From the NCBI RefSeq assembly GCF_003790525.1, contig NZ_CP033635.1: a DNA stretch of 64,000 nt. One strand, given 5' to 3'. The position numbers were made by a program, and so were the translations under genes. Of this stretch, positions 2,109 to 61,340 are shown one piece after another. How positions within the stretch are numbered: position 1 is the first letter of the stretch; every line of letters begins with the position of its first letter. The notes beneath the pieces are model-generated. The model had not been told where the DNA came from. It saw only the letters and a program-made list of their open reading frames with translations, and ran no database searches. This DNA comes from Escherichia coli. Its GTDB lineage: Bacteria; Pseudomonadota; Gammaproteobacteria; Enterobacterales; Enterobacteriaceae.

Positions 2109-3017
2109 ATGGATCAAATACGACTTACTCACCTGCGGCAACTGGAGGCGGAAAGCATCCACATTATTCGCGAGGTGGCGGCAGAATTCTCAAATCCGGT
2201 GATGCTCTACTCTATCGGTAAAGATTCCAGCGTCATGCTGCATCTGGCGCGCAAGGCGTTTTATCCAGGTACGCTGCCTTTCCCGTTGCTGCATGTCGAT
2301 ACCGGCTGGAAATTCCGCGAGATGTATGAGTTCCGCGATCGTACGGCGAAAGCCTACGGCTGCGAGCTGCTGGTGCATAAAAACCCGGAAGGCGTGGCGA
2401 TGGGGATTAATCCATTCGTACACGGCAGCGCGAAACATACCGATATTATGAAAACTGAAGGCCTGAAACAGGCGCTGAACAAATACGGTTTTGATGCCGC
2501 CTTCGGTGGTGCGCGCCGTGACGAAGAGAAATCCCGCGCTAAAGAGCGAATCTACTCTTTCCGTGACCGCTTCCATCGCTGGGATCCGAAAAATCAGCGC
2601 CCGGAGCTGTGGCACAACTACAACGGGCAAATTAACAAAGGCGAAAGCATCCGCGTCTTCCCGCTCTCTAACTGGACCGAGCAGGATATCTGGCAATACA
2701 TCTGGCTGGAAAATATCGACATTGTGCCGCTGTATCTCGCTGCGGAACGTCCGGTTCTGGAACGCGACGGTATGTTGATGATGATTGATGACAACCGTAT
2801 CGACCTGCAACCGGGCGAAGTGATTAAAAAACGGATGGTGCGTTTCCGTACGCTGGGCTGCTGGCCGCTGACCGGTGCGGTGGAGTCAAATGCACAAACA
2901 CTGCCGGAGATCATCGAAGAGATGCTGGTTTCCACCACCAGTGAACGTCAGGGCCGCGTGATTGACCGCGACCAGGCGGGGTCTATGGAGCTGAAAAAAC
3001 GTCAGGGGTATTTTTAA
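2109..3017 (+). CDS. cysD: Sulfate adenylyltransferase subunit 2
   Basis: 302-aa ORF, ATG at 2109, recognised CysD sequence; followed closely by cysN. Confidence 0.95.
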
Positions 3018-11895: not shown

Positions 11896-11930
11896 AAGGC
11901 CAGTCTCAAGCGAGGCTGGCCTTTTTCTTT
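11896..11930 (+). terminator. Rho-independent terminator downstream of rpoS
   Basis: GC-rich hairpin AAAGGCCAGTCTCAAGCGAGGCTGGCCTTT followed by a T-tract. Confidence 0.8.
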
Positions 11931-11998
11931 TATTTGGGAGTCGGTGTGTTTTGTCGCCTGGATAAGACACGTCAGCGTCCCACCCGGCAATCAACATC

Positions 11999-12439
11999 CT
12001 ATTTGCTCATCATCTTGCGCACCAGCTGCATAAACAGCTCCTGCTCTTCTGCACTCAAACGCCCCAAAAATTCCTCATCCACACTGTCACCAATCGGTAT
12101 CGCCGCAGCAAGTACCTTTTCTCCTTCGGCAGTCAGCCAGACAAAGCGTCGCCGCTTATCAGCAGAGTCATGTTCTCGTCTGACTAAGCCACGATTTTCC
12201 ATTCGTGCCAACATTTCTGCCAGCGTTGCTTTGGTGCTGACGGCTGCTTCTATCAGTGCCACCTGTTCGATACCAGGTTTATCAGCAATGGCGCGCATCA
12301 CCGCGTACTGTGGTTTGGTCAGATCAGGTAACTCGTGCTGCCAGCGAGCCGTGTGCTGCTGAAAAAGCTGTCGTAACTGATGGAACGCTTTATTTCGTAA
12401 CGCCATGTAAACTCCGGGCAAACTATCTGCCGCTATCAT
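11999..12439 (-). CDS. MarR/SlyA-family transcriptional regulator
   Basis: 146-aa ORF with winged-helix region typical of the MarR family; divergent from the decarboxylase operon. Confidence 0.85.
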   Translation of the reverse strand: MIAADSLPGVYMALRNKAFHQLRQLFQQHTARWQHELPDLTKPQYAVMRAIADKPGIEQVALIEAAVSTKATLAEMLARMENRGLVRREHDSADKRRRFVWLTAEGEKVLAAAIPIGDSVDEEFLGRLSAEEQELFMQLVRKMMSK

Positions 12440-12521
12440 AGCGGTTTTTCAGTGACGAAGAAGATGTTGTTACTTTTCAGCGCTTGCCGCGATGAAAACA
12501 GAGGCGTATTTTAATAATAAC

Positions 12522-12535
12522 GTTCGTATACGAAC
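12522..12535. promoter_or_regulatory. Perfect 14-bp palindrome GTTCGTATACGAAC, candidate operator for the adjacent MarR-family regulator
   Basis: Read directly; sits about 18 bp upstream of the ATG at 12553 inside the divergent intergenic region. Confidence 0.4.
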
Positions 12536-12552
12536 AATTTAGAGAGTAAGCA

Positions 12553-13146
12553 ATGAAACTGATCGTCGGGATGACAGGGGCTACCGGTGCGCCTCTTGGG
12601 GTGGCATTACTGCAAGCGCTGCGGGAGATGCCGAATGTCGAGACTCATCTGGTGATGTCGAAGTGGGCGAGAACCACCATTGAACTGGAAACGCCTTACA
12701 GCGCTCGCGATGTTGCTGCCCTCGCAGACTTCAGCCATAACCCGGCGGATCAGGCGGCGACCATCTCCTCAGGTTCCTTTCGTACCGACGGCATGATCGT
12801 TATTCCGTGCAGTATGAAAACGCTCGCCGGTATCCGTGCCGGTTACGCCGATGGCCTGGTGGGGCGCGCGGCGGACGTCGTGCTCAAAGAAGGCCGCAAA
12901 CTGGTGCTGGTGCCGCGTGAAATGCCGCTTAGCACAATCCATCTCGAAAATATGCTCGCACTTTCGCGCATGGGCGTGGCGATGGTGCCGCCGATGCCTG
13001 CCTTTTATAACCATCCCGAAACGGTAGATGACATTGTCCACCACGTGGTAGCCCGCGTGCTGGATCAATTTGGCCTCGAACATCCTCACGCCAGGCGCTG
13101 GCAAGGATTGCCGCAGGCCCGGAATTTTTCTCAGGAGAATGAATAA
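12553..13146 (+). CDS. UbiX/Pad1-family flavin prenyltransferase, B subunit of a non-oxidative hydroxyarylic acid decarboxylase system
   Basis: 197-aa ORF, N-terminus MKLIVGMTGATGA typical of the UbiX/PAD1 flavoprotein fold; translationally coupled (ATAATGG) to the UbiD-like gene; ecdB/kpdB/bsdB-type. Confidence 0.88.
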   Translation: MKLIVGMTGATGAPLGVALLQALREMPNVETHLVMSKWARTTIELETPYSARDVAALADFSHNPADQAATISSGSFRTDGMIVIPCSMKTLAGIRAGYADGLVGRAADVVLKEGRKLVLVPREMPLSTIHLENMLALSRMGVAMVPPMPAFYNHPETVDDIVHHVVARVLDQFGLEHPHARRWQGLPQARNFSQENE

Positions 13147-14573
13147 TGGCATTTGATGATTTACGCAGCTTTTTACAGGCGCTCGACGACCATGGGCAAT
13201 TGCTGAAAATCAGCGAAGAGGTGAACGCAGAACCGGATCTGGCAGCCGCAGCCAACGCCACCGGGCGTATCGGCGACGGCGCGCCCGCGCTGTGGTTTGA
13301 CAATATTCGCGGCTTTACCGATGCCCGCGTGGCGATGAACACCATCGGTTCCTGGCAGAACCACGCGATTTCCCTCGGCCTGCCGCCAAATACCCCGGTT
13401 AAAAAACAGATCGATGAGTTTATCCGCCGCTGGGACAACTTCCCGATAGCCCCGGAACGCCGAGCCAATCCAGCCTGGGCGCAGAACACCGTCGATGGCG
13501 AAAAGATTAACCTGTTCGATATCCTGCCGCTGTTTCGTTTAAACGACGGTGATGGCGGTTTCTATCTCGACAAAGCGTGCGTGGTTTCCCGCGATCCGCT
13601 CGACCCGGATAACTTCGGCAAGCAGAACGTCGGTATCTACCGCATGGAAGTGAAGGGCAAACGTAAGCTCGGCCTGCAACCGGTGCCGATGCACGATATC
13701 GCGCTGCATCTGCATAAAGCGGAAGAGCGCGGTGAAGATCTGCCGATTGCCATCACCCTCGGTAACGATCCGATCATCACCCTGATGGGGGCCACGCCGC
13801 TGAAATATGATCAGTCCGAGTACGAAATGGCGGGCGCGCTGCGCGAAAGTCCGTACCCGATTGCCACCGCCCCACTGACCGGTTTTGATGTACCCTGGGG
13901 CTCGGAAGTGATCCTCGAAGGGGTTATCGAAAGTCGTAAACGTGAAATCGAAGGGCCGTTCGGTGAGTTTACCGGGCACTACTCCGGCGGGCGCAACATG
14001 ACCGTGGTGCGCATCGATAACGTCTCTTATCGCAGCAAACCCATTTTTGAATCGCTCTATCTCGGGATGCCGTGGACGGAAATCGACTACCTGATGGGGC
14101 CAGCCACCTGCGTGCCGCTGTATCAGCAACTGAAAGCCGAGTTCCCGGAAGTGCAGGCGGTAAACGCCATGTACACCCACGGCCTGCTGGCGATTATCTC
14201 CACCAAAAAACGCTACGGTGGCTTTGCCCGCGCGGTGGGCCTCCGTGCGATGACCACGCCACACGGTCTGGGCTATGTGAAGATGGTGATTATGGTCGAT
14301 GAAGACGTTGATCCGTTCAACCTGCCGCAGGTGATGTGGGCGCTCTCTTCGAAAGTGAACCCGGCAGGGGATTTGGTGCAGTTGCCGAATATGTCCGTGC
14401 TGGAACTCGACCCTGGCTCAAGTCCGGCGGGGATCACCGACAAGCTGATTATCGACGCCACCACGCCTGTCGCCCCGGACAACCGTGGTCACTACAGTCA
14501 GCCGGTGGTGGATTTACCGGAAACCAAAGCCTGGGCTGAAAAACTGACCGCTATGCTGGCCGCACGTCAATAA
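13146..14573 (+). CDS. UbiD-family decarboxylase, C subunit of a hydroxyarylic acid decarboxylase
   Basis: 475-aa ORF of UbiD size and sequence character; in operon between UbiX-like and small-subunit genes; ecdC/kpdC/bsdC-type. Confidence 0.88.
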   Translation: MAFDDLRSFLQALDDHGQLLKISEEVNAEPDLAAAANATGRIGDGAPALWFDNIRGFTDARVAMNTIGSWQNHAISLGLPPNTPVKKQIDEFIRRWDNFPIAPERRANPAWAQNTVDGEKINLFDILPLFRLNDGDGGFYLDKACVVSRDPLDPDNFGKQNVGIYRMEVKGKRKLGLQPVPMHDIALHLHKAEERGEDLPIAITLGNDPIITLMGATPLKYDQSEYEMAGALRESPYPIATAPLTGFDVPWGSEVILEGVIESRKREIEGPFGEFTGHYSGGRNMTVVRIDNVSYRSKPIFESLYLGMPWTEIDYLMGPATCVPLYQQLKAEFPEVQAVNAMYTHGLLAIISTKKRYGGFARAVGLRAMTTPHGLGYVKMVIMVDEDVDPFNLPQVMWALSSKVNPAGDLVQLPNMSVLELDPGSSPAGITDKLIIDATTPVAPDNRGHYSQPVVDLPETKAWAEKLTAMLAARQ

Positions 14574-14583
14574 GGAGAACAAG

Positions 14584-14820
14584 ATGATTTGTCCACGTTG
14601 TGCTGATGAACAGATTGAAGTGATGGCGAAATCGCCGGTAAAAGATGTCTGGACGGTCTACCAGTGCCAGCATTGCCTCTATACCTGGCGCGATACCGAA
14701 CCGCTGCGCCGCACCAGCCGCGAACATTATCCCGAAGCGTTCCGCATGACGCAGAAAGATATTGATGACGCGCCGATGGTGCCGAGCATCCCGCCGCTGC
14801 TGGCGGAAGGTAAGTGTTAA
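14584..14820 (+). CDS. Small zinc-ribbon subunit (D) of the hydroxyarylic acid decarboxylase
   Basis: 78-aa ORF with CPRC...CQHC motif, 10 nt after the UbiD-like gene. Confidence 0.8.
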   Translation: MICPRCADEQIEVMAKSPVKDVWTVYQCQHCLYTWRDTEPLRRTSREHYPEAFRMTQKDIDDAPMVPSIPPLLAEGKC

Positions 14821-14821
14821 T

Positions 14822-14857
14822 AAAAAAGTGCCGGGTAGAGGCTTTGCTTTACCCGGC
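14822..14857. terminator. Bidirectional hairpin terminator between the convergent decarboxylase operon and pphB
   Basis: Hairpin GCCGGGTAGAGGCTTTGCTTTACCCGGC flanked by A-run on the + side (T-run on the - strand) and T-rich sequence on the other side. Confidence 0.6.
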
Positions 14858-14861
14858 CACG

Positions 14862-15518
14862 TTATTTAATTTTATAAAACGATAACCGTCTGCTTTCCGG
14901 CGAGCCGGTATCAATATAAACCTGATTGGCAAATGTCTGGATGTTATCAAACATCATATGTCCAAAGATAAAACAGTCGGCACCGTTTATTTCTTTTAAC
15001 TCTCCCTTGAATGATTTCTGCACGCGATCAACAGGCCAGAGTAATTCGCTTTCTGCTATTTCTTTACCAAACTGATATTCATCACCCGGATAATCCGCAT
15101 GTGCGATGACATATTTTATTCTGTCGTTAGTGATTTCAATAATATGTGGAAGATTATGAAAACGTAGCAACAGGTCTATTGCTTCTTTTTGTTCCGTATC
15201 ACTTAACTCAAAGAACCAGTCGCCACCGCTGGCAAGCCACATATTGCCATCGCCGGTCGCGAACGCATCCAACGCCATCGCTTCATGGTTGCCTTTAACC
15301 GATGTAAACCAGGGCTGGTTTAACAGGCGCAGCACGTTAAGACTCTCCGGCCCACGATCGATGTTATCGCCTACCGAAATAAGTAAGTCGGTTTCAGGGC
15401 AAAAAGAGAGTTGATGTAAGCGGGATTGTAATAATTGATAGTCACCATGAATATCACCAACGGCCCATATATGGCGATAGTGATGGACATTGATTTTTTG
15501 ATAGCGTGTAGATGGCAT
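14862..15518 (-). CDS. pphB: Serine/threonine protein phosphatase 2
   Basis: 218-aa ORF with metallophosphatase motifs GDIHGD, GDNIDRG, GNHE; recognised PphB. Confidence 0.92.
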   Translation of the reverse strand: MPSTRYQKINVHHYRHIWAVGDIHGDYQLLQSRLHQLSFCPETDLLISVGDNIDRGPESLNVLRLLNQPWFTSVKGNHEAMALDAFATGDGNMWLASGGDWFFELSDTEQKEAIDLLLRFHNLPHIIEITNDRIKYVIAHADYPGDEYQFGKEIAESELLWPVDRVQKSFKGELKEINGADCFIFGHMMFDNIQTFANQVYIDTGSPESRRLSFYKIK

Positions 15519-57766: not shown

Positions 57767-57859
57767 GGTGAGGTGGCCGAGAGGCTGAAGGCGCTCCCCT
57801 GCTAAGGGAGTATGCGGTCAAAAGCTGCATCCGGGGTTCGAATCCCCGCCTCACCGCCA
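57767..57859 (+). tRNA. serV: tRNA-Ser (anticodon GCU)
   Basis: 93-nt sequence GGTGAGGTGGCCGAGAGGCTGAAGGCGCTCCCCTGCTAAGGGAG...CGCCTCACCGCCA with long variable arm and encoded CCA. Confidence 0.95.
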
Positions 57860-57862
57860 TTT

Positions 57863-57939
57863 GCATCCGTAGCTCAGCTGGATAGAGTACTCGGCTACGA
57901 ACCGAGCGGTCGGAGGTTCGAATCCTCCCGGATGCACCA
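57863..57939 (+). tRNA. tRNA-Arg (anticodon ACG), copy 1
   Basis: 77-nt GCATCCGTAGCTCAGCTGGATAGAGTACTCGGCTACGAACCGAGCGGTCGGAGGTTCGAATCCTCCCGGATGCACCA. Confidence 0.95.
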
Positions 57940-58003
57940 TCTCTTACTTGATACGGCTTTAGTAGCGGTATCAAAAAATCTGCAGTAAAGTAAGTTTCCC
58001 GAT

Positions 58004-58080
58004 GCATCCGTAGCTCAGCTGGATAGAGTACTCGGCTACGAACCGAGCGGTCGGAGGTTCGAATCCTCCCGGATGCACCA
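58004..58080 (+). tRNA. tRNA-Arg (anticodon ACG), copy 2
   Basis: Identical 77-nt sequence. Confidence 0.95.
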
Positions 58081-58142
58081 TCTCTTACTTGATATAGCTT
58101 TAGTGGCGGTATCAATATCAGCAGTAAAATAAATTTCCCGAT

Positions 58143-58219
58143 GCATCCGTAGCTCAGCTGGATAGAGTACTCGGCTACGAACCGAGCGGTCGGAGGTTCG
58201 AATCCTCCCGGATGCACCA
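58143..58219 (+). tRNA. tRNA-Arg (anticodon ACG), copy 3
   Basis: Identical 77-nt sequence. Confidence 0.95.
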
Positions 58220-58282
58220 TCTCTTACTTGATATGGCTTTAGTAGCGGTATCAATATCAGCAATAAAATAAATTTTCCCGAT

Positions 58283-58359
58283 GCATCCGTAGCTCAGCTG
58301 GATAGAGTACTCGGCTACGAACCGAGCGGTCGGAGGTTCGAATCCTCCCGGATGCACCA
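58283..58359 (+). tRNA. tRNA-Arg (anticodon ACG), copy 4
   Basis: Identical 77-nt sequence. Confidence 0.95.
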
Positions 58360-61264: not shown

Positions 61265-61340
61265 AAGAAAAAGGCCACTCGTGAGTGGCCAAAATTTCAT
61301 CTCTGAATTCAGGGATGATGATAACAAATGCGCGTCTTTC
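61265..61340 (-). ncRNA. micA: Small regulatory RNA MicA (SraD)
   Basis: Minus-strand reading GAAAGACGCGCATTTGTTATCATCATCCCTGAATTCAGAGATGAAATTTTGGCCACTCACGAGTGGCCTTTTT matches MicA including its terminator hairpin; divergent from luxS. Confidence 0.92.

Follow-up and report, generated by a model that had tools for sequence, protein, structure and literature searches.

The 14-bp palindrome between hosA and the vdcBCD decarboxylase operon of Escherichia coli: a known HosA operator, very probably, and its conservation across Enterobacterales

The window, as the whole 64,000-nucleotide stretch of Escherichia coli DNA analyzed here is called, contains the genes pcm, nlpD, rpoS, hosA, vdcB, vdcC, vdcD, pphB, and mutS in this order, with hosA, pphB, and mutS on the minus strand and the three vdc genes on the plus strand. 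The locus is the known variable rpoS-mutS region of E. coli, and within it hosA lies divergent from the vdcBCD operon, also named ecdBCD. The 3 kb around the site that is the subject of this work (positions 11900 to 14900 of the window) are 100% identical to the corresponding DNA of E. coli SMS-3-5 and several other strains. More broadly, the hosA-vdcBCD segment was identified in 2417 of 5426 complete E. coli genomes, in every case on the chromosome. The segment forms deep allele groups, the hosA-vdcB spacer being 80 to 90% identical in 1313 genomes of the E. coli collection, and in strain 23CRST013 the match is interrupted by an IS4-like ISVsa5 element. Some further features of the window were noted in passing. 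A hairpin followed by a T-run directly after the rpoS stop codon (11900 to 11919) is the likely rpoS terminator and separates rpoS from the 3' end of hosA. Elsewhere, matches to Rfam comprise a five-tRNA gene cluster and the MicA small RNA, at 57767 to 58356 on the plus strand and 61269 to 61340 on the minus strand, which are unrelated to the operator.

The regulator is a MarR winged-helix protein and an orthologue of HosA. It matches the Pfam MarR family (E value of 6e-12; 45.7 bits against a cut-off of 24.6) and is identical at 132 of 134 positions to PDB entry 8aga, "Transcriptional regulator HosA," the crystal structure of the protein from strain E2348/69; six more PDB entries were also matched. 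The match to the NCBIfam MarR model, by comparison, is weak (28.7 bits against a cut-off of 240). Mechanical calling of open reading frames extends hosA to an in-frame upstream ATG at 12439, which would give a protein of 146 amino acids. The start was taken to be at 12406, because homologues and the RefSeq annotation begin there (the RefSeq hosA coding sequence in related strains is 408 nt long and encodes 135 amino acids), and the divergent intergenic region therefore spans 12407 to 12552, that is, 146 nt. On the other side of this region, the three genes of the operon follow in the subunit order B (UbiX-like), C (UbiD-like), D, with all three products scoring above the respective NCBIfam cut-offs. 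By these profile matches, the operon is identified as vdcBCD/ecdBCD, which encodes a non-oxidative hydroxyarylic acid decarboxylase (HAD). The features of the locus are compiled in Table 1.

Table 1. Genes and control elements at the hosA-vdcBCD locus (window coordinates, except for O2)
Feature	Position	Strand	Basis and remarks
hosA, MarR-family repressor, 135 aa plus stop	11999..12406	-	Pfam, PDB match, RefSeq
Conserved CTATCATAGC, containing TATGAT (12440 to 12435)	12433..12442	-	Candidate hosA -10
Predicted -35 of the decarboxylase operon, TTGCCG	12484..12489	+	Conservation; inferred
Predicted -10 of the decarboxylase operon, TATTTT	12507..12512	+	Conservation; inferred
HosA operator (O1), GTTCGTATACGAAC	12522..12535	.	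Perfect 7+7 14-bp palindrome, read from sequence
Likely ribosome-binding site of ecdB/vdcB, GAGAG	12542..12546	+	Read from sequence; does not overlap the operator
ecdB/vdcB, UbiX-type flavin prenyltransferase subunit B	12553..13146	+	NCBIfam VdcB, 312 bits vs cut-off 290; Pfam Flavoprotein; RefSeq name
ecdC/vdcC, UbiD-type decarboxylase subunit C	13146..14573	+	NCBIfam VdcC, 788 bits vs cut-off 650; Pfam UbiD N, core, and C domains
ecdD/vdcD, small subunit D	14584..14820	+	NCBIfam VdcD, 121 bits vs cut-off 30
O2, HosA-like site of other genera	Upstream of hosA, ~2830-3000 in locus coordinates		Loci L006, L008, L014, L016, L019, L021, L024, L025, L027, L031, L033, L035, L037, L038, L040-L051, L053, L054, L056-L060, L065, L068

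An earlier note on this DNA had pointed to a perfect 14-bp palindrome some 18 bp upstream of the decarboxylase start codon, between divergent genes, and had proposed that the adjacent MarR-like regulator uses it as its operator. The description holds: GTTCGTATACGAAC has full 7+7 symmetry, 17 nt separate it from the ecdB/vdcB ATG, and the two transcription units diverge as described. Palindromes of this kind are not rare in themselves. Three perfect 14-bp palindromes were observed in the 64-kb window, compared with 5.4 ± 2.3 expected from sequences simulated under a first-order Markov model with the base-transition frequencies of the window, whereas the shuffled 146-nt intergenic region contained one in about 1% of the cases (209/20000). 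A search of the remainder of the 64-kb window with up to 2 mismatches returned no further copies of GTTCGTATACGAAC. Near matches to the arms alone (GTTCGN4CGAAC with 1 mismatch) numbered 5 in the window, four of them additional to the operator, compared with 2.5 expected, which is not above chance. The palindrome by itself is thus within chance expectation, and its support comes from position and conservation; it stands above chance because no other 14-nt stretch of the intergenic region is as well conserved in the 74 related loci.

To assess this conservation, an alignment of HosA orthologues was used to define 80 loci, one per species, from Escherichia, Citrobacter, Salmonella, Klebsiella, Enterobacter, Kluyvera, Kosakonia, Leclercia, Lelliottia, Phytobacter, Pseudocitrobacter, Atlantibacter, Rahnella, and other genera. 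The ecdB gene lies divergent upstream of hosA in 75 of the 80 loci, 74 of which could be analyzed. In the remaining five (L052, L061, L067, L071, and L078, from Pluralibacter, Superficieibacter, Cedecea, and Rahnella victoriana), no ecdB was found within 3 kb upstream of hosA. Looking for the same palindrome upstream of homologous operons was among the checks that the earlier note had suggested, and the operator is present, with at most 2 mismatches, in all 74 analyzed loci, at a distance of 15 to 24 nt from the ecdB ATG (35 to 36 nt in Rahnella). Positions 2 to 5 (TTCG) and 10 to 14 (CGAAC) are invariant in 75/75 sequences, variation being confined to position 1 and the central positions 6 to 9. 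Mean identity to the window is 0.95 over the 14 operator positions but only 0.48 over the rest of the intergenic region. Within the species, four other sampled E. coli alleles, with spacer identity down to 87%, all carry the exact 14-mer. The present comparisons themselves show the identity of the regulator, of the operon, and of the site with the published one, as well as how deeply the site and the promoter signature described below are conserved.

The site is already known from another strain of the same species. Synthetic DNA containing a "14-bp palindromic TFBS of HosA," with flanks as in the window, was used by Cao et al. 2018 (PMC6261655), who reported binding of HosA to this site by EMSA and biolayer interferometry, dissociation of HosA from the site DNA by 4-hydroxybenzoate (4-HBA), and an apparent Kd of 0.09 nM (RT-qPCR biosensor assay). 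The supplementary oligonucleotides of that work have the form CAGAGGCGTATTTTAATAATAAC-site-AATTAAGAG, matching the window from 12499 on; oligonucleotide T_H contains the exact 14-mer, and DNAHosA-F0 has the same flanks as the window, so that the operator sequence and the published HosA binding site are the same. A literal query of the literature full text with the 14-mer gave no match, the sequence being found in the supplementary table alone. In Table S1 of PMC6261655, the site appears on both strands as the 15-nt GTTTCGTATACGAAC, an impossible reading for complementary strands. The genome that represents this allele (strain 7/2, locus L081, positions 151 to 209) carries the 14-mer, and the extra T is therefore presumed to be an error of printing or text extraction. 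The published binding concerns HosA and DNA of strain UMN026, an E. coli strain other than that of the window. Compared with the UMN026-like allele of strain 7/2, the window is identical in the 14-mer and in the 23 nt on its 5' side, and differs by 3 substitutions between the site and the ATG and by 2 more in the upstream spacer. The UMN026 operator of the HAD operon is the same 14-bp site in the same divergent hosA/vdcBCD arrangement between rpoS and mutS; the differences are at the strain level only, and the element is thus the same one in another strain.

The origin of the site, as cited in PMC6261655, is Roy & Ranjan 2016 (Biochemistry 55:1120; doi 10.1021/acs.biochem.5b01163). According to the account of that study given in a preprint (10.1101/2024.04.24.590444), HosA represses the HAD operon as well as its own gene, and the palindromic site is located "downstream to transcriptional start site"; preprint summaries of the same study also state that 4-hydroxybenzoate relieves the repression. 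The mapped start site and the footprint limits of Roy & Ranjan 2016 are quoted here second-hand, via two preprints. Two more groups have used the HosA motif and its release by 4-HBA in biosensors (PMC6694116 and PMC10992608). It is this literature that provides the evidence for physical binding and its reversal by 4-hydroxybenzoate, for repression in vivo, for autorepression, and for where the site lies relative to the transcription start. Together, the identity with the published HosA site and the conservation footprint bear out the proposal that the palindrome serves the adjacent regulator: it is almost certainly the operator of the divergently encoded HosA and controls vdcBCD/ecdBCD, and none of the evidence contradicts this assignment.

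Three other explanations of the palindrome were considered. The inverted repeat might act as RNA, either as a hairpin at the 5' end of the ecdB mRNA or as an intrinsic terminator on the minus strand, instead of binding a protein. Indeed, a terminator scan reports a minus-strand stem (12536 to 12521) followed by a T-rich tail, and the palindrome folds as RNA into a 5-bp stem with a 4-nt loop. However, five pairs are all that this stem has, and the fold is no more stable than expected (z = 0.23, with 111 of 200 shuffles equally stable). Moreover, the arms do not vary across the 75 sequences and show no compensatory change; in Rahnella, the outer G is replaced by A and the opposite arm has no matching change. 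Such base-by-base invariance is what contact with a sequence-specific protein would predict, rather than the requirement for a stem, and protein binding at the site has been published (PMC6261655). Given the z score and the invariant arms, the hairpin or terminator reading was rejected and is considered very improbable. That the palindrome is a functionless product of chance agrees with its frequency, about 5 per 64 kb being expected at the composition of the window and 3 seen, but not with its maintenance in 74/74 orthologous intergenic regions of numerous genera, where its distance from the start codon is fixed and the spacer is otherwise just 48% conserved. Because of this conservation and the published binding (PMC6261655), a chance palindrome is excluded for all practical purposes.

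It could also be that the main binder of the site is another regulator, such as SlyA or some other MarR paralogue, and that the binding of HosA in vitro is incidental. The MarR/SlyA paralogues have a common fold and some of them recognize AT-rich palindromes, as is generally known for the family; in addition, HosA was originally described through a motility phenotype, as related in the preprint (10.1101/2024.04.24.590444). Against this, the site accompanies hosA, being carried by each of the 74 analyzed HosA loci with a divergent ecdB. The reported apparent Kd is as low as 0.09 nM (RT-qPCR biosensor assay; PMC6261655), with release that is specific to the substrate of the operon, and the nearest other MarR proteins of solved structure score only about 63 bits. 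Another principal binder is hence hardly to be expected, and HosA remains the strongly preferred one.

The position of the operator relative to the promoter bears on how HosA would act. A simple sigma-70 scanner with a threshold of 9 of 12 did not call a promoter here, and the hexamers were therefore assigned from conservation. Across 73 related intergenic regions, the TTG at 12484 to 12486 is conserved at 99 to 100%, and 17 nt after TTGCCG there follows the signature TAnnnT (12507 to 12512), in which T1 and A2 are each conserved at 99% and T6 at 100%. In the likely ribosome-binding site, G12546 is 88% conserved. From these elements, transcription is predicted to start at about 12519 to 12520, which would place the operator at approximately +2 to +16, in accord with the location, downstream of the transcription start, that the literature gives. 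The earlier note had envisaged a repressor that blocks initiation at the palindrome. The operator role is supported by the literature and by the footprint; the block, however, would operate at the predicted start site, by occlusion or as a roadblock, and not over the -35 and -10 hexamers, because of the position of the operator.

In the mechanism that we propose, a HosA dimer would occupy two half-sites, the GTTCG and CGAAC arms, which are separated by a 4-bp AT-rich center, just past the transcription start of the sigma-70 promoter TTGCCG-17-TATTTT. Bound in this way, HosA would lie inside the polymerase footprint and could stop open-complex formation, initiation, or promoter clearance. Binding of 4-hydroxybenzoate, a substrate of the encoded UbiX/UbiD-type decarboxylase, releases HosA from the DNA, so that the operon would be made only when the substrate is present.

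For hosA itself, two candidate promoter elements were observed. In CTATCATAGC, all but the central base show 82 to 99% conservation among the genera; from the end of its minus-strand TATGAT it is 28 nt to the hosA ATG, which is preceded by GGAG at a distance of 5 nt. A terminator scan flags a plus-strand hairpin with a T-run at 12429 to 12445, which covers this element. Separately, the minus strand contains a promoter-like pair directed toward hosA, consisting of TTGTTC (12537 to 12532), which overlaps the operator, an 18-nt spacer, and TAAAAT (12513 to 12508); A12537, which falls just beyond the palindrome, shows 99% conservation. This TTGTTC-18-TAAAAT pair could be a hosA promoter that is repressed from the operator and, if used, would account for the repression of hosA, too, by one site.

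HosA can be compared with several known systems. The family prototype, E. coli MarR with its operator marO, is a winged-helix dimer that phenolic ligands release from a palindromic operator in the promoter region; MarR has two marO sites, which overlap the -35/-10 region and the ribosome-binding site of its own operon, whereas HosA of E. coli has a single site, predicted at about +2 to +16 of the divergent target operon. PcaV of Streptomyces coelicolor is a MarR repressor that is released by protocatechuate, a ligand of the hydroxybenzoate type. Its operator is likewise a palindrome between divergent genes, with a sequence unrelated to that of the HosA operator, and PcaV controls a ring-cleavage (pca) pathway, not a decarboxylase. 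Among proteins of solved structure, PcaV (PDB 4fht/4g9y) is the next best relative of HosA and, at 63 bits, a distant one. The decarboxylase operon, for its part, has a homologous counterpart in bsdBCD of Bacillus subtilis, which comprises UbiX-like, UbiD-like, and D subunits and is induced by phenolic acids. The regulator of bsdBCD, BsdA, is a LysR-type activator, unlike the MarR repressor HosA.

In about half of the other loci, the intergenic region contains a second, weaker HosA-like site. This element, denoted O2, typically has the asymmetric sequence GATCGTrTACGAAC, with up to 3 mismatches to the main site, and was detected in 35 of the 74 loci, including those of Klebsiella, Enterobacter, Kluyvera, Leclercia, Lelliottia, Pseudocitrobacter, and others. 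It precedes the main operator by 56 to 57 bp, and 4 nt separate its end from the -35. The right arm, CGAAC, is the same in all of these sites; the left arm is degenerate. The chance of an O2-like match is about 0.1% per locus. In this comparison, O2 is absent from the window, from other Escherichia, from Salmonella, and from the Citrobacter freundii group; at the corresponding position of the E. coli spacer, 4 of the 14 bases match in the alignment, which makes it unrecognizable there. The hosA-ecdB spacer is 145 to 146 nt long in Escherichia, compared with ~170 nt in most other genera, a difference of about 25 nt, and the alignment places a gap of ~27 nt in the Escherichia spacer between 12454 and 12455. 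Judging from these alignments, the ancestral control region possibly had two HosA sites of which Escherichia retained only one, although we rate this scenario at somewhat below even chances. The element in E. coli having been characterized before, the comparison of the two sites and the loss in Escherichia are the sole part of this analysis that might be new.

Through HosA and its operator, many Enterobacteriaceae turn on the decarboxylation of 4-hydroxybenzoate, including that from hydrolyzed parabens, only when the substrate is available. The operator 14-mer already serves as the DNA part of in vitro biosensors for 4-hydroxybenzoate. If O2 is a real HosA site, E. coli would represent a pared-down, single-operator form of this control region, and the strength of repression or the autoregulation of hosA could vary between genera.
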